64,000 nt of DNA from Candidatus Binatia bacterium (GCA_963666515.2 OY762897.2:1088001-1152000), one strand, 5' to 3'; positions 2,457-18,319 are shown, counted from the stretch's first letter. The notes: a model not told the origin generated them from the sequence alone. Numbers and translations: made by a program.

Positions 2457-2932
2457 TGGCGCGTCTCAAGCGGGTCGCCCAGATCGACACACCGGAGTCG
2501 GCGCCGCGTTACGAGCTTCGCATTGCGCGCCACGGTCCCGCCGACACGGAATACGAAATCTGGCAGATGCCGGGTCCGGCCACCCCGCATCTGAGCGCGG
2601 CGGCTCGGGTCGCGGGCCTGAAGGGCCGCAACCTGCAACTCGTGGAGCACCGGGTGCTGAAGCGGTTGTCACAGGCGGGCGTGAAGCCGATCCTCGGGGA
2701 CCAGCGGAAGCACGGCTATGCCGTCTCCGAAGATCTGGCGCTGACGCTCGGCCTTCTGTTCCGCACCCTCGCCCCCATGCGAAGCCGCGACAACATGCGC
2801 GCCGTTGCCGAAGGCATCGAGGCCATGGGACGCGAGGAAGCAGCCTACTGGCTCGGCATGGCCATGCACCGCAGACACCCGCGCCGGGTGCTGACGGCGC
2901 TTCGCTTCTTGCTGACGGAGCCGAAGCGGTGA
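2456..2932 (+). CDS. Small DUF3780-like protein of the DUF499/DUF1156 system
   Basis: 158 aa, TGATG-coupled to the DUF499 gene. C-terminal MGREEAAYWLGM...RRVLTALRFLL resembles the small subunit of these operons. Confidence 0.7.
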   Translation: MARLKRVAQIDTPESAPRYELRIARHGPADTEYEIWQMPGPATPHLSAAARVAGLKGRNLQLVEHRVLKRLSQAGVKPILGDQRKHGYAVSEDLALTLGLLFRTLAPMRSRDNMRAVAEGIEAMGREEAAYWLGMAMHRRHPRRVLTALRFLLTEPKR

Positions 2933-3017
2933 CTTCTATTGACAGTTGCCGGGTTTTTTCTAACAGTTGCTTTTGGCAACAGTACTGGCGTGGTCAAATG
3001 GGGAAGGAGGTCCAGGG

Positions 3018-3209
3018 GTGCAGACTGCAAAGGAGTCCGCTCGTCAGGCCATCGACCGGCTGTCGGATCAGGCGACCTGGGAAGACATCATGTACGAACT
3101 ATATGTGAAGCAGAAAGTCGACGCGGGAATTGAGGCGGTCGCAGAAGGTCGTACGATCCCTCACGAGGAAATGAAACGGCGGTTGCTCGCCAAGAAGCGC
3201 CACGTATGA
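3018..3209 (+). CDS. Putative antitoxin of RelE/ParE module
   Basis: GTG start after AGGAGG. 63 aa, with C-terminal GIEAVAEGRTIPHEEMKRRL typical of ParD/RelB-like partners. ATGA overlap with the toxin gene. Confidence 0.75.
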   Translation: MQTAKESARQAIDRLSDQATWEDIMYELYVKQKVDAGIEAVAEGRTIPHEEMKRRLLAKKRHV

Positions 3210-3517
3210 AGCTCTTTTGGTCGGATGTCGCCGAGGCCGATCTCGACAATATCTACGACCACATTGCCCGCGACGTGCCCTACTACGCCGAACTCTTCAT
3301 AGATAGACTCATTGAAGCCACAAACAAGCTCCAAGACCATCCAAGAATCGGACGGCAGGTGCCCGAAGCTGGTTATCGGGATGACATCCGGGAGATTATC
3401 CTGCAAGGGTACCGGATCATCTATCGGATCACCGCAGAAGGGATATACATCCTGACAGTCATCCACGGTAGCCAGGACTTGGCACGACGGTCGTCTGTTC
3501 CTTGGGAGGATAACTGA
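3206..3517 (+). CDS. RelE/ParE-family toxin
   Basis: 103 aa with WSDVAEADLDNIYDHI, HPRIGRQVPE, YRIIYRI and ILTVIHGSQD. Confidence 0.9.
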   Translation: MKLFWSDVAEADLDNIYDHIARDVPYYAELFIDRLIEATNKLQDHPRIGRQVPEAGYRDDIREIILQGYRIIYRITAEGIYILTVIHGSQDLARRSSVPWEDN

Positions 3518-3529
3518 TATGGCAGTGGA

Positions 3530-3600
3530 CCGTTGCCGAAGGCATCGAGGATCCCCGCCGAATGCTGACGGCGCTACGCTTCCCGTTCACTGAACCGAAG
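3530..3600 (+). repeat. Degenerate, internally deleted copy of the 3' end of the DUF3780-like gene
   Basis: 3530-3550 is identical to 2802-2822 (21 bp). 3553-3600 resembles 2878-2926. Translates VAEGIE-D-PRRMLTALRFPFTEPK versus VAEGIE...HPRRVLTALRFLLTEPK. Confidence 0.85.
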
Positions 3601-3660
3601 GCGCCGAGAACCCCTACGCTGCAATGATGGACTCTGCCCTTAGCTCGGAGGGATGGGATC

Positions 3661-4938
3661 ATGAAGCTGAAAGCCGTCGAGATCGAGAACTTCCGCGCCA
3701 TCGTGAAGCTCACCCTGCCGCTCGATCCTCAGCTAACGGTGCTGCATGGCACCAACGCCCACGGCAAGACTAGCGTGCTGAGCGCGATCGCGGTGGGGCT
3801 CGGCGCCATTCCTACTCGGCTACCCGGTGTTTCGGGCATCAGTTTCCGCAAAACCGATCTGCGTGAGGGTGCGCAATCGGCGCGGGTCACATTGACACCA
3901 GTCGGCGGACATCCCTGGAATCGGATTCGAACCAAGCAGGGTAGCGCACAGGGGGGAGCGAGCGGATTGAAGTGGTTGAGGGAACAGACTGGAAGGGTCG
4001 TCGACGCTGAGAGGGAAGGACCGCCGATCGATCTGCCTATCGTCGCCCTCTACGACACAGACCGAGTCGTGTTCGATTTGCCGCAGCGACGACGCGGGTT
4101 CAGTAAGGAGTTTCCCCGTTTTGCTGCGTTGGAGGGGGCACTTTCCGCCCGGACGAATTTTCGGACGCTCTTTCAGTGGTTCTATTTCAAGGAAAACGAA
4201 GAGTTGAGAGAACAAAAGAAGCAGCGCGACTTCGGGTATCGTCGGAGGGATCTGTCCGCTGTCCGCGATGCAATGTCGGCCATGCTTGACGACGTGTCTG
4301 ATCCTCATATCGAGGTGAATCCCCTTCGGTTCGTAGTGACTCTCGACACGGGACAGAATGGCGAGAAGCTGGCTCTCGACCAGTTGAGTGGCGGCTATCG
4401 CGCAGTGCTTGCTCTCGCGGCCGATTTGGCGTGGCGGATGGCCCAGGGAAACCCGCACCTTGACGACCCGCTCCGAGCCGAGGCGGTCGTCCTGATCGAC
4501 GAGATCGAGTTGCATCTCCATCCCTCGTGGCAGCAGCGGATACTGGACGACCTTACGCGGACGTTTCCGAACGCACAATTCATCGTTTCCACCCACAGTC
4601 CACAGGTGCTGACCACCGTGGAGCCGAAACACATTCTGGAACTCTCTCGGAAGGATGGGCGCATCGTTGCCGGATCTCCAGCGGGATGGACCTACGGGGC
4701 CGAAGCGGGTGATGTGCTGTCGGCGGTGATGGGCGTTAACGAGCGACCCGACAACCCCTTTACCGAGGCACTGGCCCGGTACGGCCATCTGGTAAGTGAG
4801 GGCCGGGGTGAATCCGAGGAAGCTCGGACCCTGCGGGAGACTCTCGATGATTTCTCTCCCGAGGACCCCGCCCTTGCCAGTGCCGACCTTGAAATCAGGC
4901 AACGCAAGTTGTTCAAGCGGATGGCGGAATCAAAATGA
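3661..4938 (+). CDS. ABC/SMC-type ATPase, Septu PtuA-like
   Basis: N-terminal IENFRAI, Walker A GTNAHGKTS, signature LSGGY, Walker B LIDEIELHLHP, H-loop STHSP. Followed by an HNH gene. Confidence 0.85.
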   Translation: MKLKAVEIENFRAIVKLTLPLDPQLTVLHGTNAHGKTSVLSAIAVGLGAIPTRLPGVSGISFRKTDLREGAQSARVTLTPVGGHPWNRIRTKQGSAQGGASGLKWLREQTGRVVDAEREGPPIDLPIVALYDTDRVVFDLPQRRRGFSKEFPRFAALEGALSARTNFRTLFQWFYFKENEELREQKKQRDFGYRRRDLSAVRDAMSAMLDDVSDPHIEVNPLRFVVTLDTGQNGEKLALDQLSGGYRAVLALAADLAWRMAQGNPHLDDPLRAEAVVLIDEIELHLHPSWQQRILDDLTRTFPNAQFIVSTHSPQVLTTVEPKHILELSRKDGRIVAGSPAGWTYGAEAGDVLSAVMGVNERPDNPFTEALARYGHLVSEGRGESEEARTLRETLDDFSPEDPALASADLEIRQRKLFKRMAESK

Positions 4939-5705
4939 AGCGCATCAGGGAATTGGAGGACGCCCCACTTGGCTTTGCCGAATTCCGCCATGCCGAGGGT
5001 GACAACGCGCCCTGGAGTAGATTTCGCTCTCGCAGATGGCGTGCTGAGGGCCGCGAACTCCAGGATGCTTTGGCGGGAAACCAACATGGACTTTGCGCCT
5101 ATTGCGAAATCGATATCTACGAACCGGGTCGGCCGAACAGATCGCGCCGTCAGATTGAGCATGTGATTCCGAGGAGTGCTGCCGACAGGGCACTCGACCC
5201 TACCAACATGGTTGCCTGTTGCATGGGCGGTACAGTGCGAGCCCTTGATGAGGAGGAAGATGGGGGCGAGGGCCATTTTCGGGAACCCATAGCGGACAAC
5301 ATGAGCTGTGGCCAAGCAAAGGGCGACCGGAACGATCCGGCTTTTGTGGACCCGCGGACACTACCAGATTTACCATCGCTCACGAGAGTGGGTGACGACG
5401 GATCGATTGAAACGGACGAGGGTGCGTGCCAGTCTGCCGGGTTTTCGCCTGAGGGGATGAACCGCACCCTCAAAATCCTTAACCTGAACGCCGAACGCCT
5501 CCGGTTGGCGAGGAGGAAATGGCGGAATGCCCTCGTCGAACAGTCGCGCGATATTGACGGTCCCGATCAGATGGATGTTTGGATACGGTCCGTCTTGACA
5601 CCGGACGCGGATGGCCGACTGCTTCGATTCTTCACCACGAGCCGGTGCTTCTTCTCTCCACTGAGTGAACGTATTCTCAAAGAGTACCCTCAGACGTGGA
5701 TCTGA
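4935..5705 (+). CDS. HNH endonuclease, Septu PtuB / retron-associated HNH-like
   Basis: CAYCE, IEHVIPRS, NMVACC, SCGQAKG, ILNLN motifs. ATGA overlap with the ATPase gene. Confidence 0.85.
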   Translation: MKRIRELEDAPLGFAEFRHAEGDNAPWSRFRSRRWRAEGRELQDALAGNQHGLCAYCEIDIYEPGRPNRSRRQIEHVIPRSAADRALDPTNMVACCMGGTVRALDEEEDGGEGHFREPIADNMSCGQAKGDRNDPAFVDPRTLPDLPSLTRVGDDGSIETDEGACQSAGFSPEGMNRTLKILNLNAERLRLARRKWRNALVEQSRDIDGPDQMDVWIRSVLTPDADGRLLRFFTTSRCFFSPLSERILKEYPQTWI

Positions 5706-5712
5706 CTACTGG

Positions 5713-5824
5713 ATTGGCAACCTTTCAGTCTGCAACAAATCTGCTGGCAATACCCCTTGACACCCATCTGATCTTCCACTAAATTTGCTGGCAGCAATTC
5801 TGTTGGCAATCGTCTTGTTGGAGA
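5713..5824 (+). promoter_or_regulatory. Sigma70-type promoter with repeated TG(C/T)TGGCA boxes
   Basis: TTGACA (5757-5762), 17 bp, TAAATT (5780-5785). Boxes at 5742, 5786, 5801 and 5817 (last degenerate). Palindrome TTGCTG-G-CAGCAA at 5785-5797. Confidence 0.65.
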
Positions 5825-5831
5825 TTGGATC

Positions 5832-7106
5832 ATGACCCTCAGGAAAGCCGGGTCCAATTGGGTCGAGGGGGATCGGTTCTTTGACCGGGACGCCGAGATT
5901 AGAACTCTCACGGAGCGGATCCGGGAGGGGACCCATACATTGCTGACCGCCCAGCGTCGAATGGGCAAGACGAGTCTGGTTCGGGAGACACTACGCCGCT
6001 TGGGTGAAGATGGTCGCTTCGAGACGATATTCGTCGATCTGGAGAGCGCTAGCACCCCGGCGGACGCCATCGCCGAGATCGTGCTCCAGTCGAGGTCAGC
6101 GCGGGGAATATGGCAGCGACTCAAATCCTGGTTCGCCAACATCCCCGATGCGGTTGGTGCTCGGCTCGATACCCTTGGCGTTCCCTTCTTGCGATTGAAG
6201 CTGAGAGGCGGGATCGATGCCGGAAACTGGCGACAAAAGGGTGATCAGGTCTTCGCGGCCTTGGCGGAAAACGATCGGCCGGTAGTACTCGCAATCGACG
6301 AGTTGCCGATTCTCGTCAATCGCCTGCTCAAGGGGGACGACGACCTCACCACACCGGAGCGAAGGCAGGAAGCTGAAATTTTCCTGAGCTGGCTTCGAAA
6401 GAACGGTCAAGAACATCAAGGACGGGTCTGTATGATCCTTTCCGGCAGCGTAGGTCTTGGCCCGATCCTGCGGCATGCAGGACTCAGTGCCCAAGCGAAC
6501 ATCTATTCCCCTTTCGATCTGAAACCCTGGAACGAGCAGACGGCCGTCGCCTGCCTTGGCGCGCTGGCGGAGACGTATGATCTGGACCTTTCCCTTGCCG
6601 TGCTGCGGGACATGTGCCGTCGGCTGCGGTGTCAGGTTCCCCATCACGTACAGCTATTCTTCGACAATCTTCACGAAGACCTGCGCCAACTCGGCCGGCG
6701 TGAAGCCTCACTGGAAGATGTGGATCGCGTGTACACCGGTGCGATGCTTGGCGCCGGGAGAGAGATGGTTCTGAAGCACTATGAGAGCCGACTGAAGATG
6801 GTGCTCGGGAAGGAAGGGTATGGGATCGCCATTGAGTTACTGACCGAGGCAGCGGTCAACTGCGGTCGGCTGCGCCATGATGCCATCGGCCGTTATCGAA
6901 GGTATTTCCTGGCCAAGATTTCGACGCCAAGTCAGGACGAAGCCGGCATCGTTCCGATAGAGGAAGTGCTCCATGTGCTCGAACACGACGGATATCTGGT
7001 GAGGCGTGGCGCCGACGGTTACCGATTCGTGTCGGGTCTCCTCGAGGACTGGTGGCGAGGGCGGCACGGCCAGTCCTTTGTCCCCATCGGCCAGCGTCGG
7101 GTTTGA
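5832..7106 (+). CDS. P-loop ATPase (STAND/archaeal-ATPase-like), function unknown
   Basis: FFDRDAE pre-motif, Walker A AQRRMGKTS, Walker B VLAIDELP. C-terminal wHTH-like LEHDGYLV...YRFVSGLLEDWW. Confidence 0.8.
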   Translation: MTLRKAGSNWVEGDRFFDRDAEIRTLTERIREGTHTLLTAQRRMGKTSLVRETLRRLGEDGRFETIFVDLESASTPADAIAEIVLQSRSARGIWQRLKSWFANIPDAVGARLDTLGVPFLRLKLRGGIDAGNWRQKGDQVFAALAENDRPVVLAIDELPILVNRLLKGDDDLTTPERRQEAEIFLSWLRKNGQEHQGRVCMILSGSVGLGPILRHAGLSAQANIYSPFDLKPWNEQTAVACLGALAETYDLDLSLAVLRDMCRRLRCQVPHHVQLFFDNLHEDLRQLGRREASLEDVDRVYTGAMLGAGREMVLKHYESRLKMVLGKEGYGIAIELLTEAAVNCGRLRHDAIGRYRRYFLAKISTPSQDEAGIVPIEEVLHVLEHDGYLVRRGADGYRFVSGLLEDWWRGRHGQSFVPIGQRRV

Positions 7107-7121
7107 ACGGGGACTGGAACG

Positions 7122-10100
7122 ATGGCCGTAACCGCAAGGAAATACAACCCGGGGTTCCTCACCGACGACGAGTTGGTGGCGTCGTTCTGCGTGCGGACGA
7201 GCGAGTTCGAGTCGATGGTCGAGATGCTGCGCGATTGCACCGGAAGCTCGAACCCGCATCAGATCGTGACCGGCCCCCGCGGCAGCGGAAAGACGAGCCT
7301 GCTCCTGCGCATTGCGGCCGAGGTGCGCAGGGATTCCGAGTTGTCGTCCCGCTTCTTCCCGATCGTTTTTGCAGAGGAGAGCTACGAGGTCGCCACCGCC
7401 GGGGAGTTCTGGCTCGAATGCCTGTCCCGCCTAGCGGCGCAGGCACCCAGCCGAGAGGGCGGCCCTGATCTGCAACGGACTGTCGAAGAGCTGCGAACCC
7501 ATCGTGACGACCGAACTCTAGCCGAGCGTTGTCTTGTCTCCCTGCTGGACTTCTCGGACAGGGAAGACAAGCGGCTGGTGCTGATGGTCGAGAACCTGAA
7601 CATGATGTTCCGAGACATGGCGGACGCGGACACGGGGTGGCGGTTGCGGCACACCCTCCAGAACGAGCCCCGGATACTCATGCTTGCCAGCGCCACCAGC
7701 CGTTTCGACGAGATCGACAACCCGGAGCATGCACTTTACGACCTCTTCAGGGTACACACCCTGCGCCCCCTCAACACGAAAGAGTGCGCTGTTCTTTGGG
7801 AAACCGTATCCGGTCGATGCCCCGCACCGAAGACGATCCGGTCGTTGGAGATTCTCACCGGCGGAAGCCCGCGACTGCTCACCATCGTCGCCCGCTTCGG
7901 CGCGGTCCGGTCCTTTCGTGAACTTATGGCCGATCTTCTCGACTTGGTCGACGACCATACGGAGTATTTCAAGAGCCATATCGAATCGCTTCCGCCGCAG
8001 GAACGTCGGGTCTACCTTGCACTTGCGGAACTATGGAAGCCAGCGACCACAAGGGAAGTCGCGGATCGATCCCGGCTGGAGACAAGCAAGTGCAGCGCCC
8101 AGCTCGCGCGCCTCATCGAACGGGGCGTCGTCCAGATAAAGGGCGGCACGGCTAGGCGCAAGCAGTACTACCTGACCGAGCGCCTGTACAACATCTATTA
8201 CCTGATGCGGCGCTCCCGCGGGGCTAGTGGCTTGGTGGAAGCGCTTATCCAGTTTATGGCGTCGTACTACTCACCTTCTGAGCTCAAGGATTTGAGTACT
8301 CGCGTTGCCCGTGATGCGCTGGTCTCTGACCCAGAGACACAGCCGTTACATCGGGCCGCTCTAGTGTCCTTGATGGCGTTGCCTGCATTGGCTGGATATC
8401 GCAGGGAGCTACTTGCCATGATTCCGTCGGACCTCGCCGAGGTCCTCGATTTGGCCCGTCTGGGTGCAGCGAAACCGGATCACTATCGAGACGATCAGTT
8501 TGACGAACAGCCGGAGGCGGCTTCAGCGAAGGCTCTCTTGGAGGAGGCGGTTGCACTTGATGCACAGAACCGGCCTGAGGAGGCCGTAGCAGCCTATGAT
8601 GCGGTCATACAGAGATGCGTAGGTAATGAGACTTCGACTATTCTCGAACTGGTAGCGGCGGCCCTGGTAAACAAAGGGGCCATGCTACTAATCAGGTTGA
8701 ATCGACCGGAGGCCGCATTGGCCGTCTTTGACGAGGTGACACGTCGATTCGCGAGTAGTGGGAATCCAAATCTCTGGAGATCGGTCGCGGTTTCGTTCCT
8801 CAACAAGAGCGCAGCCCTCAGCGTATTGAATCGCACCGAGGAAGCGTTGACAGCTTTTGACGAGGTAGTGCAACGGTTCGGAAGCAGCGAAACGACAATC
8901 CTCCTCGAACAAGTCGCAGTGGCCCTCGTGAACAAGGGAGCCATGCTTGGAGAGTTGGGCCGACCGGAGGAAGCCCTGACTGCCTGCGATGAAGTGGTGC
9001 GTCGATTTGGTAGGAATGGTGCGCCGGCGTTTTGCAGGCCGGTCGCGAAGGCTTTCGTCAACAAAGGTATGGCCCATAAAGTGTTGAATCGGATGGAAGA
9101 CGCACTGGCGGCCTTTGATGAGGTAGTGTGTCGGTTCGGTCACAGCGAGTCGTCAGCCTTCCTCGATGAATTTGCGACGGCTCTCGTCGAAAAAGGGATT
9201 GCACTAGGCAGACTGGATCGCCCCCTGGAGGCACTGGCGACCTTCGACACGGCAGTGCGTCGATTCAGAGATGGCAAGGACCCCAGCCTCCTTAGGCAAG
9301 TCGTAAAGGCCCTCGTCAATCAAGGCGTCGTACTTGCCGAGTTGAACCGTCCAGAGGATGCACTGGCCGCTCTCGACGAGGCGGTGAATCGATTTGGGTC
9401 TGACGACACACCGGCCTTTCGAGATCTAGTCGCAAAGGCATTCGTCAGCAAAGGGGCCGTACTAAGCCGGCTGAATCTGTGGGATGAAGCCGTGGTTGCT
9501 TATGACGAGGTAGTGCGCCGATTCGGAAGTAGCGGAGAGCCAGCCCTCCTTGAGTTGGTAGCGACCGCGCTTGTCAACAAAGGATTGACGCTCGGAATAC
9601 TCAACAGGCAAGAGGAGGCACTGGCCACTTTCGACGAGGTGACTCGCCGATTTGGGACCAGCAAGGAGCCTGCTCTTCTTAAGTTGATCGCGGCTGCGCT
9701 CGTGGCTCGGGGGGTGGCACTGGACGCGTCAAATAGATCAGACCAAGCGCTAACTGGTTGGGATGAAGTGGTGCATCAATTTGCCGCGAGTGACGTACCC
9801 GCGGTTCTTGAGCAAGCCGCAATAGCGCTCGTCAACAAAGCGTCCGTGCTCCTCAGGTTGAACCGGCCGGAGGAAGCACTGATCGTCTGTGACGAGTTGG
9901 TGAATCGATTCGAGGCAAGTGAGACGCCAGACATGTCCGAACAAGTTGCCAGCGCATTCCTTGACAAGGGGGCTGCACTCGACACTCTGGATCGGCCAGA
10001 GGACGCACTGGCCGCCTATGACGAGGTAGTGCGTCGCTTCGGAGCCAGTGAGACGCTTGGCCTCCTTGAATCAGTCGCTAAGGCACTCGTCAACAGCGGG

Positions 10101-10847
10101 TCGATACTGAGTGGGCTAAACCGGACCGAGGAAGCACTGGCCGTGTACGATGAGGTGGTGCGTCGATTCAATGACACCGAAGGGCCGGTTATTCTTGAAG
10201 AGGTCGTAACAGCTTTCGTCTGCAAGGGATACGAGCTCGGTAACTTGAACCGTCCAGACGAAGCATTGGCCACCTGTGACGAAGTGGAGCAGCGATTCGG
10301 AAACAGCGACTATGTCCCTATCCGCGGACTGACCGAGGACGCGCTCTTAGTGAAAGCGAATATTGAGTTGAAGGATCAGAGATACAGGGCCGCAATCGAC
10401 ACGGCTGGTCACGTACTTGACCAGCACCGCACGGAATCGCCAGAGAACCGATTGGCAGGTCACCAAATCCGCGCAGTGGCGGCCCTTGCGACCGGCAATT
10501 TGTCCGGATGCGAGCAGGACATCAAGGCGATCCTTGCAATTCTTCCGGAAGTTACGTCTCTCTCGAAGCCGATATTCAACACGTTGATGGCCTTCAGCAT
10601 CGAGCTCGGTCCGTCGCGTATGCGGCAAATCATCCAGGCATCGCCATCCGCCAAGTTGCTGTTGCCTCTCACCACAGCTTTGGAACGTGAGCTTGGAATT
10701 GAGTCCCGGGTCGCACGCGAGGTTGAGGAAGTGGCCCAGGACATCCAGCGGGACTTGGCGAAGTTGAGAGAAGACTGGACGATGGCAACGAGTGGGGAGA
10801 AGTTGGCGAGTCCCGCGTCAGTGCATACGGATCCGAAGAATGGCTGA
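7122..10847 (+). CDS. NTPase-wHTH-TPR repeat protein (STAND-like architecture)
   Basis: Walker A GPRGSGKTS, atypical Walker B LVLMVENLN, ILTGGSPR, HTH-like TTREVADRSRLETSKCSAQLARLIERGVV, then 14 TPR-like repeats. Confidence 0.85.
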   Translation: MAVTARKYNPGFLTDDELVASFCVRTSEFESMVEMLRDCTGSSNPHQIVTGPRGSGKTSLLLRIAAEVRRDSELSSRFFPIVFAEESYEVATAGEFWLECLSRLAAQAPSREGGPDLQRTVEELRTHRDDRTLAERCLVSLLDFSDREDKRLVLMVENLNMMFRDMADADTGWRLRHTLQNEPRILMLASATSRFDEIDNPEHALYDLFRVHTLRPLNTKECAVLWETVSGRCPAPKTIRSLEILTGGSPRLLTIVARFGAVRSFRELMADLLDLVDDHTEYFKSHIESLPPQERRVYLALAELWKPATTREVADRSRLETSKCSAQLARLIERGVVQIKGGTARRKQYYLTERLYNIYYLMRRSRGASGLVEALIQFMASYYSPSELKDLSTRVARDALVSDPETQPLHRAALVSLMALPALAGYRRELLAMIPSDLAEVLDLARLGAAKPDHYRDDQFDEQPEAASAKALLEEAVALDAQNRPEEAVAAYDAVIQRCVGNETSTILELVAAALVNKGAMLLIRLNRPEAALAVFDEVTRRFASSGNPNLWRSVAVSFLNKSAALSVLNRTEEALTAFDEVVQRFGSSETTILLEQVAVALVNKGAMLGELGRPEEALTACDEVVRRFGRNGAPAFCRPVAKAFVNKGMAHKVLNRMEDALAAFDEVVCRFGHSESSAFLDEFATALVEKGIALGRLDRPLEALATFDTAVRRFRDGKDPSLLRQVVKALVNQGVVLAELNRPEDALAALDEAVNRFGSDDTPAFRDLVAKAFVSKGAVLSRLNLWDEAVVAYDEVVRRFGSSGEPALLELVATALVNKGLTLGILNRQEEALATFDEVTRRFGTSKEPALLKLIAAALVARGVALDASNRSDQALTGWDEVVHQFAASDVPAVLEQAAIALVNKASVLLRLNRPEEALIVCDELVNRFEASETPDMSEQVASAFLDKGAALDTLDRPEDALAAYDEVVRRFGASETLGLLESVAKALVNSGSILSGLNRTEEALAVYDEVVRRFNDTEGPVILEEVVTAFVCKGYELGNLNRPDEALATCDEVEQRFGNSDYVPIRGLTEDALLVKANIELKDQRYRAAIDTAGHVLDQHRTESPENRLAGHQIRAVAALATGNLSGCEQDIKAILAILPEVTSLSKPIFNTLMAFSIELGPSRMRQIIQASPSAKLLLPLTTALERELGIESRVAREVEEVAQDIQRDLAKLREDWTMATSGEKLASPASVHTDPKNG
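8574..10382 (+). repeat. 14 tandem ~129-bp (43-aa) TPR-like coding repeats
   Basis: Consensus PEEALAAFDEVVRRFG-x(8)-EQVAKALVNKGxxLxxLNR, counted 14 times in the translation. Boundaries are approximate. Confidence 0.9.
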
Positions 10848-13815
10848 CACGCGCCTGATCGAACGGTGGTTGCCGATTGCGGAGATCGGTATCGAGAGCA
10901 TTCGTGAGCGGACTCCGATGACGCCGTTCCCTGCACCGAACCGACTCCACGTCTGGTGGGCGCGGCGTCCGCTGGTGGCGTCCCGGGCGGCGGTTCTGGC
11001 GTCCCTGCTGCCGAAGGATGCGGACCGAAGTCGGTTTCTGCATGTGCTTGGAATTCACGGCGATCCGGTGGCGGTCAAGCAGACACTCAACAAGGCGAAA
11101 CGTAGCGGGGAAAATCTAGGACCGAATCCATATGGCTATGGACGTGCTTTCAGCTATGTGCCGGATAACGAAGACAAGGGTTGGTTAGCGGATGCCACAG
11201 GAAGGTCTTTATCGCGCACGTCGGTGCTTGATCCGACCTCTGGCGGTGGCAGCATCCCCATGGAAACTGTACGGCTCGGGCTTGCGCCAGTAGCGAACGA
11301 CCTGAATTCTGTCGCTACGTTGATTCTCAAGGCGACTGTCGATTGGCCGTTCCGGCATTCCTCCGAAATGCTGGAATCCTTCCAGACATTGAGTCGTGAG
11401 TTCGTTCGCCGGGCGGAGCCGAAGTACGAAGGCGTGTTTCCCGCTGAGCACGACGGCACTCGGATCGTCGGTTATCTTTGGGCGCGAACTATCGTCTGCC
11501 CGTACTGTGAAGGGCTGGTGCCGCTGTCGCCCAACTGGCGGTTGGCACCCAGCGGGACGGGCATCCGCTTGAAGCCTGTCCTCGGTGCCGGGCCGGGGTC
11601 ACCGGGGCGTGTGTGTTCATTCGAGATTGTCGAGGACCTTGCAGAGCAGTCGCCCGGCACAGTGTCACGCGGGTCGGGTGACTGTCCTTATCCGGACTGT
11701 CGGCGAATCATCGACGGCGATACGATCAAAGCCCAGGGGCAGGCCGGAAGGATGGGCGAGCAGCTTTACGCTGTCGTCTACAAGCAGCGAGTCGAGTACG
11801 AGACGAAGACGGGCCAGATTCGAGTGAAGTGGGTGCGCGGCTACCGGGCGCCGTGTCTGGAGGATGACAACGATGTGGATGTCCGGGCGCGACTCGATGA
11901 GAAGCTGGTTGAGTGGGATGCTTTCGACATCGTGCCGACCGAAGACTATGACCATATGTACAGCGACCGGTCGAGAATCTATGGTGTCAACAAATGGCGC
12001 GACCTGTTTTCGCCCCGCCAACTCCTTTGCCACGGCACGAGCGTGGAAATCTTCCGGGAAATGCTCGACGCGGATCGGGCCGCCGGCCATCTCGACGGGG
12101 TTCGGAAGGCTGCCTACGGGTATCTTGCGCTGGCCCTGGACAAGCTGCGCGATTACAACTCCAGGATGACCCGGTGGCATGCGAATCGCCAAGTGATGGT
12201 CAATACCTTCGACCGGCATGATTTCGCGTTCAAGTGGTCCTACGCCGAGATGGCGCCCTTGATTACCGGCCTTGGGTACGACTGGGCCATCAAGCAGACC
12301 GCCAAGTGCATCAGCGAGCTTGTCGCCCTCGTCCGTCCTGACGCCCGCGTCAATGCCGCCGACCCCGGTCTTTTCGACCGGGTTGACGAGGAGGCCGATC
12401 GACCTCCGCCGCCACCCTCGGTCACCATCACCTGCAAGCCGGGCGACAGCCTCGACCACATCCGCGACGCATCCATCGACGCCGTGGTGATGGACCCACC
12501 GTACTATGACAACGTGATGTACGCTGAGCTTTCGGACTTCTTCTACGTTTGGTTGAAGCGCACCGCCGGTCACGTCTTTCCCGAGCTGTTCCGCCGCCAG
12601 CTTACGGACAAGGAGAACGAGGCGGTGGCCAATCCGGCCAAGTTCCAGGGAGAGAAGGGGGCGCGGGCGCGCGCCGGTCAGGACTACCAGGAGCGCATGG
12701 CGGCCATCTTCGCGGAGTGCCGCCGGGTCCTGAAGTCCGACGGCATCATGACCCTCATGTTCACCCACAAGGCCACGGGGGCCTGGGACGCGCTCACCAA
12801 GGGGTTGATAGAGGCGGGTTTCACCATCACCGCCTCCTGGCCCATCAATACGGAGGCGGAAGGGAGCCTGCACATCAAGGACAAGGCCGCGGCCAACAGC
12901 ACCATCTTCCTGGTGTGCCGCCCGCGCGTCCGTGATCCGTTCCTGGTTCGGGATGAGCCGGAACTTTACTGGGAAGACGTGGAGCCGCGGGTCGCATCCG
13001 CAGTGCGTTCGCGGGTCTGCGAGTTCCAGGAGGCGGGCATTGCCGGGGTCGATCTCTACCTTGCCTCGTTCGGGCCGGCCCTGGAGGAGTTCTCCCGTCA
13101 CTGGCCGATCAAGCGGGGCACGCCGCGCGAGCTTCCCGTCGAACGCCGTCGCCGGCGCCAGCACGTGCTTTTCGAGGAGGAATGGGACCCCTACGTCGCC
13201 ACGCCCGAAGACGCCCTCGGGGTCGCCCGGCGGGAGGTCAAGCGCTGGCGTCTGGAGCAGTTGACTCATCTCAAGGCCAACGCCGATTTGGATGCCGCGA
13301 CGGCGTTCTTCGTGCTTGCCTGGGATGCGTTCAAGGCGCCCGTGTTCTCTTACGACGAGGCGCTCAGGCTCGCGCACGCCGTGGGCGTTGATCTTGATAG
13401 TGACGTGGTCGGCCGGCTGGCCGAGAAGAAGGGGAGCGACATCCGGCTCTGGGACAGCGCGCGGCGTGCCGCCAAGGGGGCGCTCGGTCCGCCTGACGGC
13501 TCCCGCGGCATGATCGACGCGATCCATCACGCGGCCAATCTGGCGCGTCTTCGATCCCTGGACGCGGCGCGGGAGTTGCTGGCCACGACCCTGGTGGACA
13601 AGGACCCGCGCTTCTTCGCCTCCCTCGAAGCGGTGCTGGAGGTGCTGCCCGTCTCTCGTGCCTTCACGGGGATCGAGTTGACAGGGGAGGCCGCAGCGTC
13701 GGGTACGGACTTCGAGACGCTCTACAATCTTTCCCGCCTTGCGTACCGCGACCGCATCGACGAGCCTGAGCAGTTGAAGGAACAGTTGAAGCTGTGGCAG
13801 GACGGCGATAGCTGA
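10840..13815 (+). CDS. DUF1156-domain adenine-specific DNA methyltransferase
   Basis: RLIERWLP and LHVWWARRPL (DUF1156), DPTSGGGSIP (SAM binding), CPYC...CPYPDC, DPPYY catalytic motif. ATG at 10840 overlaps the previous stop. Confidence 0.92.
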   Translation: MADTRLIERWLPIAEIGIESIRERTPMTPFPAPNRLHVWWARRPLVASRAAVLASLLPKDADRSRFLHVLGIHGDPVAVKQTLNKAKRSGENLGPNPYGYGRAFSYVPDNEDKGWLADATGRSLSRTSVLDPTSGGGSIPMETVRLGLAPVANDLNSVATLILKATVDWPFRHSSEMLESFQTLSREFVRRAEPKYEGVFPAEHDGTRIVGYLWARTIVCPYCEGLVPLSPNWRLAPSGTGIRLKPVLGAGPGSPGRVCSFEIVEDLAEQSPGTVSRGSGDCPYPDCRRIIDGDTIKAQGQAGRMGEQLYAVVYKQRVEYETKTGQIRVKWVRGYRAPCLEDDNDVDVRARLDEKLVEWDAFDIVPTEDYDHMYSDRSRIYGVNKWRDLFSPRQLLCHGTSVEIFREMLDADRAAGHLDGVRKAAYGYLALALDKLRDYNSRMTRWHANRQVMVNTFDRHDFAFKWSYAEMAPLITGLGYDWAIKQTAKCISELVALVRPDARVNAADPGLFDRVDEEADRPPPPPSVTITCKPGDSLDHIRDASIDAVVMDPPYYDNVMYAELSDFFYVWLKRTAGHVFPELFRRQLTDKENEAVANPAKFQGEKGARARAGQDYQERMAAIFAECRRVLKSDGIMTLMFTHKATGAWDALTKGLIEAGFTITASWPINTEAEGSLHIKDKAAANSTIFLVCRPRVRDPFLVRDEPELYWEDVEPRVASAVRSRVCEFQEAGIAGVDLYLASFGPALEEFSRHWPIKRGTPRELPVERRRRRQHVLFEEEWDPYVATPEDALGVARREVKRWRLEQLTHLKANADLDAATAFFVLAWDAFKAPVFSYDEALRLAHAVGVDLDSDVVGRLAEKKGSDIRLWDSARRAAKGALGPPDGSRGMIDAIHHAANLARLRSLDAARELLATTLVDKDPRFFASLEAVLEVLPVSRAFTGIELTGEAAASGTDFETLYNLSRLAYRDRIDEPEQLKEQLKLWQDGDS

Positions 13816-13818
13816 ATC

Positions 13819-16800
13819 ATGCTTCGGGACCGCAACTGGAAGCTCAAGTACACGCCTGACGACGGTGATCTCGTCCGGCTTTTCTACGTTCCGGCCCTGG
13901 AAGACGCAGAGCGCTACGACCGTCTGACCGGCTACTTCAACGCCGGCGCTCTCGCGCTGGCGGCGCGCGGCATCGAGGGCTTGGTGCGCAACCGTGGGCG
14001 CATGCGGCTCATCGTCGGCTGCACCCTGGCGCCGCCCGAGATCGAGGCCATCGAGCGGGGCGAGGAACTGCGCACGCGGGTCGAGCAGCGTCTGGCGGAC
14101 CTGCCTCTGGCGCCCCCGGACGCGGAGGCCTACGGTGCTCTTGAGTTGCTGGCCTGGATGGTGGCCCGCGGCCATCTCGACGTGAAGGTGGCGGTGCCTT
14201 GCGACGCGAGCGGTAAGCCGGTGAGCGACGACGGCATCTTCCACGAGAAGGCCGGCATCATCGAGGACCGCACGGGCGAAAAGATCGCCTGGAACGGCAG
14301 CCTGAACGAGACCGCGGCCGGCTGGCGCACCAACTGGGAGAGCATCAACGTCTATACGAGTTGGGGACCGCAACCCGAGCGGGCCGTGGCCGAGGAGACG
14401 AACTTCGCGCGCATTTGGGCCAACCGCAGTCCGCGTCTTTCGGTGTTGGACGTGCCGGACGCGGTGCGGCGGGACCTGTTGCGTTTCCTGCCTGCCGACG
14501 ATGCGCTGCCGGAACGATTGAAAGGGGTGGTGGAGGGGACGGCGGAGGTAACGCATGCCGATCCGGTCCCTGAACTGCTGGCAGTCCCGTCAGCCGATTG
14601 GCGGACCCGTGTGTGGGCTTTCATCCGGCGCGCGCCGACCCTTTCGGGTGGCGGCGCACGTGTCGGCGAGGCTACCGCGGCGGTCACGCCGTGGCCGCAT
14701 CAGGTACGCGCCTTCGAGCGCCTCTACGGCAATTGGCCCCCGAAGCTGCTGATCGCCGACGAGGTGGGGCTCGGCAAGACCATCCAGGCCGGGCTGCTCT
14801 TGCGGCAGGCGTGGCTCGCGGCCCGCGCGCAACGCATTCTCGTCCTGGCGCCCAAGGCCGTGCTGGGGCAATGGCAGATCGAGCTGCGCGAGAAGTTCAA
14901 CCTCAACTGGCCGATCTACGACGGGCGCAAGCTCACTTGGTATCCGTCGCCGGCGCAACGCGGCCGCCACGAACGCGAGGTGAGCCGCTCTGACTGGCAC
15001 CATGAGCCGGCCGTCATCGCCTCGAGCCAGCTCATGCGGCGGCACGACCGCGCCGACGCGCTGCTGGCGGAAGCCGAGCCTTGGGATCTCGTGGTGCTCG
15101 ACGAAGCGCACCATGCCCGCAGGCGCGGGGCGGGAAGCCAGAGCGAAGGCGGGCCGAACGCCCTGCTTCAGCTCATGCGCGGGTTGAAGGAGCGCACTCG
15201 GGGTTTGGTGCTGCTGACCGCGACCCCCATGCAAGTGCACCCGGTAGAGGTCTGGGACCTGTTGGATCTCCTGGGTCTCCCGCCGGAATGGACTGCGGAA
15301 GCGTTCCTCAGTTTCTTCGACGATCTGGAGCAGCCGAGCCCTTCGACAGACGCCATGGAGCGCATGGCGCGGCTGTTCCAGGCGGTGGAGCGCGGCTACG
15401 GCCCGATCACGGCGGAGGACGCGCGAGGTCTGGCCGACCTGTCGCGCCTCAAGGCCAACAAGGTTCTCCGGGCGTTGCGCGACGGTTCCAGCATCCCGCG
15501 CAGGCAGTTGGAGACGCCGGAGCGCCGGGCCGCGGTGCGGATCGTGCAGGCGCATACTCCGATTCGGCGGCTGGTCTCGCGCCATACGCGGGAGCTGTTG
15601 CGCCGTTACTTCAAGGCCGGAACCCTGACGACCCCCATCGCCGACCGCAAGGTCGAAGATCGCTTCGTGACGATGAGCGCCGGCGAGCGCTCACTCTACG
15701 AGGCGGTGGAAGAGTACATTTCGGGGACCTACAACCAGGCCGCGGCGGCCGAGCGAAACGCCGTGGGCTTCGTCATGACCATCTATCGCCGCCGGCTGGC
15801 CAGCAGCTTCCGCTCGCTCGGCAGCACGCTCCAGCGGCACATGGACACCATTGCCTCGGGCCAGGGATTGATGTCGCTGGACGAGGACGCCCCGGACGAC
15901 GAGACGCTCGACGAAGCGCCGGACACCGAAGAAATGGCCGCCATGGAGCGGCAGGCGCTAGCCATGGAAGAAACCGGCGACATCCAGGGCCTGCTCGACA
16001 GCATCGGCCGTCTTCCCCCGGACAGCAAGCTGGCCAGTCTCAAGCAGGCGCTCGACGCGTTGCGCGGCGACGGCTACCGGCAGGTCATGGTGTTCACCCA
16101 ATATACGGACACCATGGATTTTCTTCGCGAGGAACTCGGCAAGGACCCGAATCTGCGGTTGCTGTGCTTCTCGGGCCGCGGCGGGGAGGTCGCCGGAGCC
16201 GATGGCGTGTGGCGGCGAATCGGCCGGGACGACGCCAAGCGCCGATTCCGAGACGGCGAGGCAGACTTGCTGCTCTGCACGGACGCCGCGGCCGAGGGGT
16301 TGAACTTCCAGTTCTGCGGCGCCCTGGTCAACTACGACATGCCGTGGAACCCCATGCGCGTGGAGCAGCGCATCGGCCGCATCGACCGCCTTGGGCAGCA
16401 CCATTCGGTGATCCGCATCATCAATCTGCATTACGAAGGCACGGTCGAGACCGATGTCTACCGCGCCTTGCGCCAACGCATCGGGCTGTTCGAAACGGTG
16501 GTGGGACGCCTGCAACCGATCCTGGCGCGGCTCCCGCACGCCATCACCGGCGCCGTGCTCGCCGGTCGGGAACGAGAGCGCGTGGAGGTCGTCGAAACCA
16601 TCGAGCAACAGGCAAGCGCCGCCGAACGCGGCGGCTTCGACCTGGATGCAGTGTTGGACGAGGATGTCGTCATGCCGCAACGGCCGCCGTCTCCGGTTCT
16701 CATGGAAGACCTGGATCGGGTCATTTCCTCTGAGGACTTGATGCCTCCGGGCACCGAGATTCAGCCGATGGCGAACCGGGAATACAGCCTGCTGGCGCCC

Positions 16801-16980
16801 GGAATGACCGAGCGCCTGCGAGTGACGACCGACCCAGCGTACTACGAGGAACACGCCGAAAGTGTCGAGTTATGGTCTCCGGGGAGTCCGTTGTTCAAGG
16901 CTCCCGAATTCGTTGCCCCACATGATGAGGATCTTCCCGAAGGCCGGACTTTGAAGGATGTCCTCGATGGACAAAGATGA
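13819..16980 (+). CDS. PLD-like nuclease fused to SNF2-family helicase
   Basis: HEKAGIIED...NGSLNET (HKD/PLD), ADEVGLGKT, DEAHH, LLTATP, AEGLNFQ, PWNPMRVEQRIGRIDRLGQ. Confidence 0.92.
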   Translation: MLRDRNWKLKYTPDDGDLVRLFYVPALEDAERYDRLTGYFNAGALALAARGIEGLVRNRGRMRLIVGCTLAPPEIEAIERGEELRTRVEQRLADLPLAPPDAEAYGALELLAWMVARGHLDVKVAVPCDASGKPVSDDGIFHEKAGIIEDRTGEKIAWNGSLNETAAGWRTNWESINVYTSWGPQPERAVAEETNFARIWANRSPRLSVLDVPDAVRRDLLRFLPADDALPERLKGVVEGTAEVTHADPVPELLAVPSADWRTRVWAFIRRAPTLSGGGARVGEATAAVTPWPHQVRAFERLYGNWPPKLLIADEVGLGKTIQAGLLLRQAWLAARAQRILVLAPKAVLGQWQIELREKFNLNWPIYDGRKLTWYPSPAQRGRHEREVSRSDWHHEPAVIASSQLMRRHDRADALLAEAEPWDLVVLDEAHHARRRGAGSQSEGGPNALLQLMRGLKERTRGLVLLTATPMQVHPVEVWDLLDLLGLPPEWTAEAFLSFFDDLEQPSPSTDAMERMARLFQAVERGYGPITAEDARGLADLSRLKANKVLRALRDGSSIPRRQLETPERRAAVRIVQAHTPIRRLVSRHTRELLRRYFKAGTLTTPIADRKVEDRFVTMSAGERSLYEAVEEYISGTYNQAAAAERNAVGFVMTIYRRRLASSFRSLGSTLQRHMDTIASGQGLMSLDEDAPDDETLDEAPDTEEMAAMERQALAMEETGDIQGLLDSIGRLPPDSKLASLKQALDALRGDGYRQVMVFTQYTDTMDFLREELGKDPNLRLLCFSGRGGEVAGADGVWRRIGRDDAKRRFRDGEADLLLCTDAAAEGLNFQFCGALVNYDMPWNPMRVEQRIGRIDRLGQHHSVIRIINLHYEGTVETDVYRALRQRIGLFETVVGRLQPILARLPHAITGAVLAGRERERVEVVETIEQQASAAERGGFDLDAVLDEDVVMPQRPPSPVLMEDLDRVISSEDLMPPGTEIQPMANREYSLLAPGMTERLRVTTDPAYYEEHAESVELWSPGSPLFKAPEFVAPHDEDLPEGRTLKDVLDGQR

Positions 16981-17034
16981 CAGAACCGCCCCGGGTTTAC
17001 CGCGCTCAACGAATGAGACGGTCCCGCCGGGCCA

Positions 17035-18276
17035 TTATCGCTCCAGCGTCTCCTTCGCAACGAACGCCAGCAGCAGGGCAGACAGCCATAGAACGGGAGT
17101 GAGGGCAAGGAACGGGATTCCGGGGTTGAACGCATTGGCGAGTATGCCGCCGCCCGCGGGCGCGCCCAGGCCTATCAGGTCTGCGATGGTGCGGCGCATG
17201 GCCTGGAGGCGGCCCCGGGCGTGTTGCGGCGCCAGGTCATAGGTGGTGGTGGCGAGACAGCCCAGGGAAAGTCCGTTGGCGATCCCCATCAGTGACACCA
17301 GCACGGCCAGCTCGGCAAAGGTGTCGGCGAACGGGATAAGGAGAAACACCACGGCCGGAATCAGATTGCTGGGCACGGTGGCCCACTTCCTGCCCACCTT
17401 GTCGAGCACGAATCCCGCGGGCACGATCATGAAGAACACCACCACCCCGGAGATGGAGAACAGCGCGCCCACCTCCACCGGGCTGAACCCGAGGTATCCG
17501 CCGGCATAGAGGGGCAGCATGCTCTGGAGGGTGAGCCGGCACATCAGGCTGGCGGTGGTGGCGACCACGAGGACCGCGTAGGTGCGGCGAAGCGCCGGCG
17601 CCACCTCGCGGTACAGCGCGACGACGCGGCCCGTCCAGTAACCGAGTCGGAAGCGCCGGACCGCGGTTCGCGCGGAAGGCCGCGGCATCCCCGCGCCGGA
17701 CGGGCGGTCCACCGCGAGGCCGCAAAGCGCCGCGAGAGCTGCAACCAGGGCATAGGCGACGAACACGTAGCGAAAGCCCGCCGACACGGTGAGGAAGCCG
17801 CCCACCAGCGGTCCCAGAGTCATCCCGGCGCTGTGGACGCCGTGGAAACCGCTCATGACACGCCCCCGCTGGTTCTGCGAAGCGAGGTCGATGCCCGCCA
17901 CCTCACGGCCCAGGTTCCATGAGGGCTCCACCACGCCGACGACGAACAGCGCCATCAGCAGCCACACGAAGTCGGGGCTTGCGAACGCCGCGATGGCGGC
18001 TACGGCCGTGACCGCGGCGCCAACGACCATCATCACGCGCGGCTCGGTGCGGTCGAGCACGATGCCGCTCACCGGCGTGCCGACGAAGCGGCCCGCGGCC
18101 CAGGCCGTGACCGTCTGGGCAGCGGCCCCCAGGGATACGTCGAAGGAGGCCGCCAGCACCGGGATGGTGGGCAGGACCATGCCCCAGCCGAGTCCGGAGA
18201 ACAGCGTGCTGCCGTACAGAAACAGGAAGTTCCGCAGCACGCGCGGTCCGAGGAAAGGGGTCCGGGCCACCGTCAA
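17035..18276 (-). CDS. MFS transporter
   Basis: About 12 hydrophobic segments. MFS motif A-like GFVLDKVGRK. Confidence 0.88.
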   Translation of the reverse strand: MTVARTPFLGPRVLRNFLFLYGSTLFSGLGWGMVLPTIPVLAASFDVSLGAAAQTVTAWAAGRFVGTPVSGIVLDRTEPRVMMVVGAAVTAVAAIAAFASPDFVWLLMALFVVGVVEPSWNLGREVAGIDLASQNQRGRVMSGFHGVHSAGMTLGPLVGGFLTVSAGFRYVFVAYALVAALAALCGLAVDRPSGAGMPRPSARTAVRRFRLGYWTGRVVALYREVAPALRRTYAVLVVATTASLMCRLTLQSMLPLYAGGYLGFSPVEVGALFSISGVVVFFMIVPAGFVLDKVGRKWATVPSNLIPAVVFLLIPFADTFAELAVLVSLMGIANGLSLGCLATTTYDLAPQHARGRLQAMRRTIADLIGLGAPAGGGILANAFNPGIPFLALTPVLWLSALLLAFVAKETLER

Positions 18277-18319
18277 AGGTTCCTTGCCGGAATCGGGGCG
18301 CCGGTGAACTCGCCGCGGT

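Follow-up and report, generated by a model that had tools for sequence, protein, structure and literature searches.

A conserved, mobile two-gene ATPase cassette nested in an Hma-like system of a Binatia bacterium: a candidate defence module without a recognised effector domain

Two adjoining nucleoside triphosphatase (NTPase) genes in a 64,000-nucleotide stretch of DNA from a Candidatus Binatia bacterium (GCA_963666515.2 OY762897.2:1088001-1152000; the whole stretch is called the window here) form a strictly conserved module that recurs across seven phyla. Both genes lie on the plus strand: open reading frame (ORF) 1, at 5832-7106, encodes a 424-aa AAA+ ATPase with a lid and a C-terminal winged helix, and ORF2, at 7122-10847, encodes a 1241-aa NTPase with a winged helix and a long array of tetratricopeptide repeat (TPR)-like units. 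An earlier, sequence-only reading of this DNA had picked out the two P-loop NTPase genes and the 15-nt gap between them (7107-7121) as a candidate defence system; its observations are borne out, and its interpretation is supported in part. We favour, with about as much doubt as conviction, the view that the pair is an autonomous, mobile cassette with its own promoter and operator, a candidate for defence of the NTPase-plus-repeat-sensor kind, and that it works by the sequence of events proposed below. That the pair plays some part in defence against phages or other mobile DNA is a somewhat safer proposition, and we think it probable.

Is the pair a real unit? Two sets of loci bear on the question. 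In a wide scan of one genome per species (185,579 genomes) at least 460 ORF1 relatives were confirmed, and the best 80 loci were analysed; in a set of related genomes ORF1 was matched in 19 of 41, the window's own included, and 17 genus loci were taken. A homologue of the N-terminal module of ORF2 (ORF2-N) follows ORF1 directly in 80/80 of the first set, which by their record titles belong to Pseudomonadota, Acidobacteriota, Chloroflexota, Latescibacterota, Gemmatimonadota, Binatota and Spirochaetota, and in 16/17 of the second, the exception (L017) being a locus with a broken ORF1. ORF1 and ORF2 are a real functional pair and a strictly conserved module, and the co-occurrence that the sequence-only reading had proposed to measure is found to be nearly complete. 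The family is large: 2,217 proteins score at E <= 1e-3 among 8,000 scored, and a library of 50%-identity representatives holds 1,774, 936 and 232 clusters at E 1e-3, 1e-10 and 1e-30. Clustering of 1,680 ORFs from all loci, crude calls made as greedy longest ORFs weighted by third-position G+C (GC3), turned up no third gene in regular company with the pair; the companions clustered most often are alternate-frame artefacts of the gene caller, followed by DUF499 (12 loci) and a CoxLMS-type dehydrogenase.

Plasmid relatives are few, 5 in 72,556 records, all full-length and all distant (21-26% identity); four were taken up for annotation, and the record from Methylomonas carries none. In the plasmids of Clostridium estertheticum, Moraxella osloensis and Segatella copri the second gene overlaps the first by 4-11 nt. 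That second gene is homologous to ORF2-N in the Clostridium and Moraxella plasmids (E 3e-18 and 2e-36), is annotated 'tetratricopeptide repeat protein' in the former, and in Segatella is an overlapping 298-aa ATP-binding gene known from its annotation.

The best 80 ORF1 relatives are 57-70% identical by best segment, and an identity of 57-73% across the seven phyla is incompatible with vertical descent. A FastTree phylogeny of 78 ORF1 sequences, from which three loci with internal stops (L050, L060, L084) had been dropped, requires 12 changes of phylum, where the minimum is 6 and shuffled labels give about 36. Among the well-supported placements across phyla, a Binatia copy falls within a proteobacterial clade (support 97), a Bryobacterales copy within an alphaproteobacterial clade (support 100), and a Gemmatimonas copy groups with Binatia (support 99); all genomes are bins labelled by their submitters, and single cases may be mis-binned. 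Judged by these identities and this tree, the cassette is horizontally mobile between phyla. Three genomes (G001, G022, G024) have two ORF1 matches each. Decay is seen as well: copies are broken in L017, L025, L050 and L062, ORF1 has stops in L060 and L084, and ORF2 is split in L080 and L105. Carriage by phages is close to nil in the collections searched, with one partial match in 50,697 phage records and one weak partial match in IMG/VR.

What sort of ATPase is ORF1? Its Walker A motif, RRMGKTS, spans residues 42-48 (nt 5955-5975) with the lysine at K46, and its Walker B motif, AIDE, places the acidic residues at D156-E157 (nt 6297-6302); K46, D156 and E157 are invariant in 34/34 aligned sequences, and we read ORF1 as the catalytically intact partner ATPase. 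The AlphaFold2 model (pLDDT, predicted local distance difference test, 88.3; predicted template-modelling score, pTM, 0.86) has a P-loop core, a helical insert (residues 76-145) between the strands at 64-69 and 151-156, a lid, and a C-terminal winged helix consisting of a helix and a two-strand wing. The best Foldseek matches are archaeal Orc1/Cdc6 structures, 2qby_A (2e-9), 1w5t, 2v1u and 1fnn, with E from 2e-9 to 8e-8, template-modelling scores of 0.43-0.57 and sequence identities of 12-16%; eukaryotic ORC1, RuvBL and RuvB rank after them, and there is no NB-ARC or NACHT protein among the matches listed. The modelled architecture, with its core, helical insert after strand 2, lid and C-terminal winged helix, is that of AAA+ proteins in the ORC/Cdc6 clade. 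Pfam places ORF1 below two cut-offs, at 30.3 against 33.2 for ATPase_2 (PF01637) and 29.1 against 32.6 for AAA_16 (PF13191); many homologues carry a precomputed PF01637 assignment, and one relative (P0151) scores 39.0. Longer, fused forms of ORF1 were not found, in a search that is itself weak evidence. Four relatives of atypical length were inspected: one (P0159) joins an ORF1-like NTPase to TPRs, and an enzyme domain is present in 0/4.

ORF2 is a different protein. BLASTP gives no significant similarity to ORF1 (best E 0.67), and paralogy of the two was set aside. Its N-terminal module (7122-8501, residues 1-460) consists of a P-loop NTPase, a winged helix-turn-helix (wHTH) and a helical linker, and the features named by the sequence-only reading are all present: an intact Walker A, GPRGSGKT, at residues 51-58 (nt 7272-7295; K57), an atypical Walker B of the MVEN type, a wHTH and 14 repeats. 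The NTPase scores 36.7 against a cut-off of 32.6 for AAA_16, 21.7 (below the cut-off) for ATPase_2, and 25.5 against 27 in a partial match to the Pfam ORC-CDC6-like family; the wHTH, at residues 293-349 (nt 7998-8168), matches TrmB with 27.3 bits against 25.6. In an alignment of homologues the Walker B, LVLMVEN, places its last two residues at E157-N158 (nt 7590-7595), and both are invariant in 91/91 sequences, so that the Glu-Asn (E-N) ending is a trait of the family and not decay. In plasmid relatives of about 20-25% identity the motif reads IVEN for Clostridium and LIDN for Moraxella; asparagine in place of the catalytic glutamate in such distant relatives too marks the substitution as an old, selected feature. 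Replacement of the catalytic glutamate of a Walker B motif by asparagine predicts ATP binding with poor hydrolysis. ORF2, which we take for the sensor of the pair, is predicted to have an ATP-binding, ORC/Cdc6-like NTPase impaired in hydrolysis.

The repeat part of ORF2 varies. The repeat array (8577-10385, residues 486-1088) has 14 TPR-like units of about 43 aa, 12 found as anchors and two supplied by double-length gaps, and matches TPR_1 at 3e-37 along with other models; no tandem repeat was found at the DNA level in the array by Tandem Repeats Finder. Between loci the array is 26-72% identical and the N-terminal module 57-84%, and the length of ORF2 runs from 508 to 1431 aa, with a median of 967, among 79 homologues that have both end motifs. 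The array is followed by a helical cap (10386-10847) that has no Pfam match and ends in a conserved motif, SPSA-LLLPLTTALE-ELG-RVA-EVEEVA-DI (41 sequences aligned), recognisable even in pairs that are 30-45% identical elsewhere. Two homologues, in L033 and L063, are longer, at 1571 and 1572 aa, and carry beyond the end motif an extra domain of about 290 aa (L033:15116-15982 and the equivalent part of L063), which has no Pfam match and could be a rare fused output domain. A gammaproteobacterial locus (L030:11248-19775) has two adjoining ORF2-like genes of 1008 aa and 1745 aa on opposite strands, the longer with near-identical tandem TPR units.

Does either protein carry an effector? The sequence-only reading saw none, and none was recognised in Pfam, in PADLOC, in the AlphaFold2 models or in fold searches. 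Folds were predicted for ORF1 and for the C-terminal 230 aa of ORF2, and sequence searches covered the N-terminal module and residues 350-485 of ORF2. The ORF1 model is fully accounted for by the AAA+ core, the lid and the winged helix, and ORF2 opens directly with its NTPase. The last 230 residues of ORF2 are modelled with a pLDDT of 93 as ten helices and no other fold; their PDB matches are TPRs of the kinesin-light-chain type, none at E <= 0.001, and a hidden effector at this end was discarded, TPR-like folds being all that was seen. No enzyme, pore or signalling domain was found by fold search in the ORF1 model or in this C-terminal part of ORF2.

A likeness to the Avs (AVAST) proteins is easily seen. 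Both combine a P-loop NTPase and a winged helix with a long helical-repeat sensor that varies, both have spread horizontally and both occur in defence islands, and in ORF2, as in Avs, the repeat sensor is C-terminal and follows the NTPase and winged helix (14 units, residues 486-1088); degenerate ATPase motifs also occur in some Avs members, such as KpAvs8 (PMC13581612). Could the pair then be a classical Avs/STAND pattern-recognition receptor that relies on a nuclease encoded next to it, the HNH protein PtuB or the phospholipase D (PLD)-type helicase, as its effector in trans? Septu adjoins the pair in the window and in L012, L013/L037, L027, L029, L031 and L034, with a PtuA fragment in L039, and the order NTPase-wHTH-TPR does resemble Avs. 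However, most loci lack Septu or Hma, the Avs models of PADLOC give no match, the fold of ORF1 is nearest Orc1/Cdc6, and the Avs families described in the same source (PMC13581612) depend on effector domains of their own. An Avs protein is a single polypeptide with a fused effector, whereas here there are two NTPase genes without one. We regard the trans-effector model as very improbable, and of the kinship to Avs/STAND proposed by the sequence-only reading an analogy survives but not membership, since the folds nearest to ORF1 are not NB-ARC or NACHT. Its suggestion that the pair activates neighbouring nucleases cannot hold for the family at large: the pair has other genes beside it in nearly every locus, and none of them is conserved as a third member. 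Plant sensor/helper NLR (nucleotide-binding, leucine-rich repeat) pairs, in which a sensing and an executing NTPase are encoded side by side, offer another comparison, by analogy only, as the helper here is without an executing domain.

If the proteins act together, do they also bind one another? The sequence-only reading had proposed to model a heteromer. A complex prediction of ORF1 with ORF2 residues 1-460 gave a score of 0.58 (runs of 0.55, 0.62 and 0.58), the best of three controls scoring 0.00; contacts agree to at least 78% and the pLDDT of the partner is at least 78. The mark set for such scores is reached by 58/80 solved complexes and by 2/110 mismatched pairs; our prediction used its own alignments, and so these calibration counts hold roughly. 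The range at or below 0.60 holds only 7 of the 80 solved complexes together with both mismatches that passed, and the outcome was classed as 'weak support'. We take the modelling to hint at a possible ORF1-ORF2 heteromer.

The pair has its own promoter, as the sequence-only reading had held. TTGACA-17-TAAATT, a sigma-70-like element, lies at 5757-5785 on the plus strand. The match alone is not significant, one such element being found in 2300-18500 against a mean of 2.6 in shuffles; the promoter is supported because it is conserved, with TTGAC at the equivalent place in 70/80 related loci. Around it on the same strand are degenerate copies of the palindrome GTTGSCAAC. Two of these boxes lie upstream, ATTGGCAAC at 5713-5721 and GCTGGCAAT at 5743-5751, 30 nt apart, and three operator-like boxes, GCTGGCAGC at 5787-5795, GTTGGCAAT at 5802-5810 and GTTGGAGAT at 5817-5825, follow at 15-nt spacing between the -10 element and the ribosome-binding site. 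Single boxes occur in the window at the level of chance (10 found, 11.5 expected), and it is again conservation across loci that gives the window's boxes their meaning. At least one GTTGSCAAC box is found in the 100 nt before ORF1 in 76/80 loci, and at least two at 15 nt in 43/80; of the 54 distances from one box to the next, 52 equal 15 nt; and at least two boxes were found in 2/1156 random 110-nt windows of the same loci. Along the 21-kb loci the motif was counted 218 times in the 100-nt bin before ORF1 against about 7 per bin elsewhere. The array sits 3' of TTGAC(A) and extends to the ribosome-binding site, and one locus (L036) has five copies. The window and distant loci become homologous in DNA from 58-100 nt upstream of ORF1 onwards, which shows that the promoter and boxes travel with the genes. 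A role of the box as a flanking recombination site or terminal repeat was considered and rejected, the motif being absent from the 300 nt after ORF2 in 64/75 loci. From the placement of the boxes we infer that one or other winged helix may use them as its operator, so that the pair may be autoregulated.

Repeats beside an ORC/Cdc6-like gene also call iterons to mind. Might the pair be the remnant of a replication or maintenance module of a mobile element, with ORF1 as initiator? Two to five direct repeats at a fixed 15-nt spacing adjoin the gene, and the best structural matches are Orc1/Cdc6 proteins bound to origin DNA. The likeness, for example to the 2qby heterodimer on origin DNA, covers the AAA+ core, insert, lid and C-terminal winged helix, the two paralogous subunits and the DNA boxes near the gene; it stops at the second subunit of the pair, which has a TPR array and the E-N Walker B, and at the mobility of the cassette. 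The repeats moreover lie between the -35 element and the ribosome-binding site, as operators do, no other element genes and no replication genes are conserved around the pair, and the pair is nearly absent from plasmids (5/72,556) and phages. To our knowledge, a hydrolysis-impaired, TPR-bearing second subunit has no precedent among initiators. We give the replication model very little credence.

A more serious competitor makes the pair a ligand-sensing transcription module, of the type of MalT or of the large ATP-binding regulators, with a non-immune role such as stress or host-symbiont signalling; ATP, together with a protein or small molecule that binds the TPR array, would switch a wHTH complex at promoters. 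MalT has a LuxR-type helix-turn-helix and a known regulon. The pair shares with such STAND regulators an ATP switch, a helical-repeat sensor, a DNA-binding domain and probable binding at a promoter; both proteins have a winged helix, a palindromic box array stands right at the cassette promoter, there is no effector domain, and look-alikes in the Atlas are labelled MarR and HTH_24. What, then, would the pair regulate? The rest of the genome contains no tandem box pair (0 matches, up to 2 mismatches being allowed), and hence there is no visible regulon. The only visible target is the pair's own promoter, no target gene is conserved beside the pair, and the second ATPase is obligatory, which sets the pair apart from MalT. 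Transfer across phyla, variation in array length, multiple copies, frequent decay and residence in a slot for defence cargo fit immunity better. On balance we consider a regulator outside immunity unlikely, though not so unlikely as the replication or trans-effector models.

The slot just mentioned belongs to a larger system in which the pair is nested. One plus-strand gene train fills 1-17,000, after which a major facilitator superfamily (MFS) transporter lies on the opposite strand. All of the following genes are on the plus strand. The upstream half of the host system comprises a DUF499 ATPase (3-2456; Pfam DUF499 1e-23), truncated at its 5' end where the window begins, and the gene for DUF7680 (2456-2932; 2e-43); the downstream half comprises a DUF1156 N6-methylase (10840-13815; HmaB 4e-70) and a PLD-SNF2 helicase (13819-16980), the latter matching phospholipD_antiphage at 2.5e-107, under the NCBIfam cut-off. 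In PADLOC, Hma combines DUF499 and a small protein with a DUF1156 methylase and a PLD-helicase. A 2026 survey renames Hma as a DUF499-centred Type-2 BREX-related (BR) system and gives the small protein as DUF3780 (PMC12839542); in the window DUF7680 is found instead. The system, a complete one that spans 1-16980, is interrupted by about 7.9 kb of cargo: a ParE toxin gene (3206-3517; Pfam ParE_toxin 4e-21) preceded by an 80-aa ORF without a family match (2967-3209) that overlaps its start by 4 nt and is presumably its antitoxin, the Septu genes PtuA (3661-4938; PADLOC E 7e-118) and PtuB (4935-5705; PADLOC E 2e-51), and the ATPase pair. The pair is thus nested in a system like Hma, or Type-2 BR, which has a nuclease-helicase. 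Here the sequence-only reading was right about the Septu-like and toxin-antitoxin neighbours and about the defence-related surroundings, but missed the enclosing system; nor does the operon end at 10847, because the methylase begins at the ATG at 10840, in an 8-nt overlap with the ORF2 stop (ATGGCTGA), and the helicase follows, with DUF499 and DUF7680 upstream. G+C falls from about 68% to 57-60% across roughly 2500-12000, a drop that takes in roughly the initial 1 kb of the methylase gene.

How did the pair come to lie there? It stands between DUF7680 and the methylase in nine distinct loci (the window, L009, L013=L037, L029, L031, L034, L041, L042 and L052) that span Binatia, Alphaproteobacteria and Gammaproteobacteria. 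Hma genes flank it on both sides in 7/80 loci, with a further distant system (L067) upstream only; among the genus loci it is nested in 2/17, plus one adjacent case. The same slot holds Septu in the window, L013, L031 and L034, Menshen NsnABC in L012 (13797-17017; PADLOC E 7e-116, 6e-99 and 2e-104), ParDE in the window, and a gene of metallo-beta-lactamase fold in L041 and L042; the Menshen gene clusters recur, all three in L013/L037 and two in L052. The junctions bear scars. Before Septu in the window lies a remnant of the 3' end of DUF7680 (3529-3646, plus strand), of which 3529-3600 matches DUF7680 residues 116-157 by tblastn (45% identity, E 6e-4) and 3553-3646 is 86% identical by blastn to the DUF7680 end region of L009. 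In L012 (9584-9913) about 66 nt from the start of the methylase gene are carried behind ORF2, in L034 (9636-9755) a methylase 5' fragment stands between PtuB and ORF1, and in two Latescibacterota loci (L027, L036) a short DUF7680 fragment lies 5' of the pair though DUF499 is not near. These duplicated ends suggest that cassettes are exchanged when recombination occurs where DUF7680 and the methylase meet. Embedding of this kind is common: 62.7% of 1,485 Hma systems are reported to have embedded genes, 22.8% of which are known systems, and by 'guilt-by-embedding' seven of nine Hma-embedded candidates (HEC) protected E. coli (10.1101/2024.01.29.577857). HEC-01 to HEC-09 are of the ABC-ATPase, GmrSD, RelE, HEPN and NYN types and, in the part of that report available to us, none is like the ORF1-ORF2 pair (10.1101/2024.01.29.577857).

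One could ask instead whether the pair is an accessory sensor or regulator of Hma/Type-2 BR that controls or targets the DUF1156 methylase and the PLD-helicase. The 8-nt overlap of ORF2 with the methylase, repeated as an equally tight junction in L009, L034 and L042, would suit such a role, as would the position between DUF7680 and the methylase in the nine loci; DUF499, moreover, is described in the BR survey as an ORC/Cdc6-clade ATPase, like ORF1 (PMC12839542). Yet full-length DUF499 and DUF1156 are absent within 10 kb in 72/80 loci and the cassette has its own promoter. The duplicated DUF7680-3' and methylase-5' fragments mark the pair as inserted cargo, Septu, Menshen and ParDE occupy the same slot, and a term search of the main text of the survey finds neither Septu nor tetratricopeptide, 'Menshen' appearing only as a reference (PMC12839542). 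The pair resembles other cassettes in sitting in the slot for embedded defence genes, and differs from the core Hma genes in being nested in 7/80 loci. A dedicated Hma accessory is therefore an explanation that we find distinctly unlikely, less so than the replication and trans-effector models.

Several points weigh against an autonomous defence cassette and should be set beside the evidence for it. In the 72 loci without full-length Hma genes most neighbours are unrelated, ordinary or unknown genes; short fragments occur in four of these loci (L027, L032, L035, L036). When near neighbours were taken as the two nearest ORFs of at least 150 aa within 3 kb, 127 clusters drawn at random from 259 hold 220 Pfam families, many of them metabolic enzymes, and the top families are ResIII (3), AAA_21 (3), SWI2_SNF2 (2), N6_Mtase (2), AbiEii (2) and Phage_integrase (2). 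PADLOC models matched at E <= 1e-10 number 252 for the 127 near proteins against 112 for 142 proteins (from 174) more than 6 kb away, a comparison that counts models instead of proteins, that families with many models inflate, that lacks a genome-wide background and that sets against each other two groups both containing defence genes; the excess is a hint only of a defence-neighbourhood signal. The family has no names beyond 'hypothetical' or 'ATP-binding' in the sources searched. Because the methylase start overlaps the ORF2 stop in the window and in L009, the pair may be functionally coupled to its host system there. ATP-sensing wHTH-TPR proteins are also ordinary transcription regulators. 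Finally, as no effector was found, the output step of the scheme that follows is speculation.

For the autonomous defence cassette we propose the following course of events. At rest the pair would repress its own promoter through the GTTGSCAAC boxes. A foreign protein, of phage or plasmid, would bind the repeat array of ORF2; ATP-bound ORF2 would then recruit ORF1 into an ATP-dependent heteromer, and both winged helices would move from the operator to another DNA target. The output would be DNA binding that blocks the invader, or else the host, in replication or transcription, an output at the level of DNA being preferred to an enzymatic one because neither protein has an effector domain. A bolder version would make the pair a member of a widespread, unnamed, effector-less immune class of heteromeric ORC/Cdc6-like AAA+ pairs, in which a hydrolysis-dead subunit reads foreign proteins by a fast-varying TPR array and the complex acts on DNA through two winged helices, silencing the invader or blocking its replication with no nuclease, NADase or pore, autoregulated and travelling between phyla as defence-slot cargo. 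This we consider a long shot, on a par with the non-immune regulator, and we think an effector-less output at the level of DNA no likelier.

Does the pair already have a name? There is no specific family for ORF1 or ORF2 in PADLOC-DB v2.0.0, NCBIfam release 20 or Pfam, in keeping with the failure of the sequence-only reading to match the pair to a named system, and PDB sequence searches with the two proteins gave nothing below E 0.01. At E <= 0.01 PADLOC-DB v2.0.0 returns mad8, SoFic and CARF3 only, with no Avs model and no HEC or PDC model. The MADS protein mad8 was rejected as a relative, as only positions 18-69 and 25-75 of 314 are matched (E 2e-4 and 5e-5), which is the P-loop region. The look-alike clusters in the Atlas carry generic AAA, MarR and HTH (HTH_24) labels only. 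The literature searched on STAND, Cdc6, TPR and anti-phage conflict systems does not name the pair, though tables of STAND clades, PDC candidates and BR-embedded genes could still list the family, and the available portions of PMC7159879 and PMC13581612 describe no matching two-gene system. If the pair protects against phages, it would be a common two-gene system that current annotation tools miss (at least 460 loci; 936 clusters at E <= 1e-10), and would raise the question of how an NTPase-plus-repeat sensor defends without a recognisable effector. The invariant E-N Walker B beside an intact partner ATPase, and the conserved operator, are direct experimental handles. The locus further illustrates, and clearly, how cassettes are exchanged within an Hma/BR-type system, with scars that show the swapping of cargo.

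Some smaller observations concern the surroundings of the pair. In Binatia and some others a CoxL/CoxM/CoxS-type molybdenum dehydrogenase operon adjoins it (L010:10123-13439, L011, L021-L024, L038, L046, L063), and probably represents conserved chromosomal sequence flanking the site of insertion. The Segatella plasmid copy adjoins DUF262 and WYL genes. On the Moraxella osloensis plasmid pNP7-2 (L109) the distant pair is flanked by a QatD/QueC-like remnant and a protein kinase, and by a dUTPase and an N6-methylase, among transposases. In Logan contigs from four DNA runs, identical contigs cover 3334-7191 and 8168-10911, and a joint links 8222 to 10632; the short side of the joint is 21 letters at 90% likeness and may derive from other organisms, and no conclusion was drawn from it. 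In the same four runs the summed contig depth is several-fold higher at 7009-8176, 12265-12848 and 14601-15184, that is, over conserved ORF2-N, methylase and helicase sequence, as expected if co-sampled organisms hold related copies.

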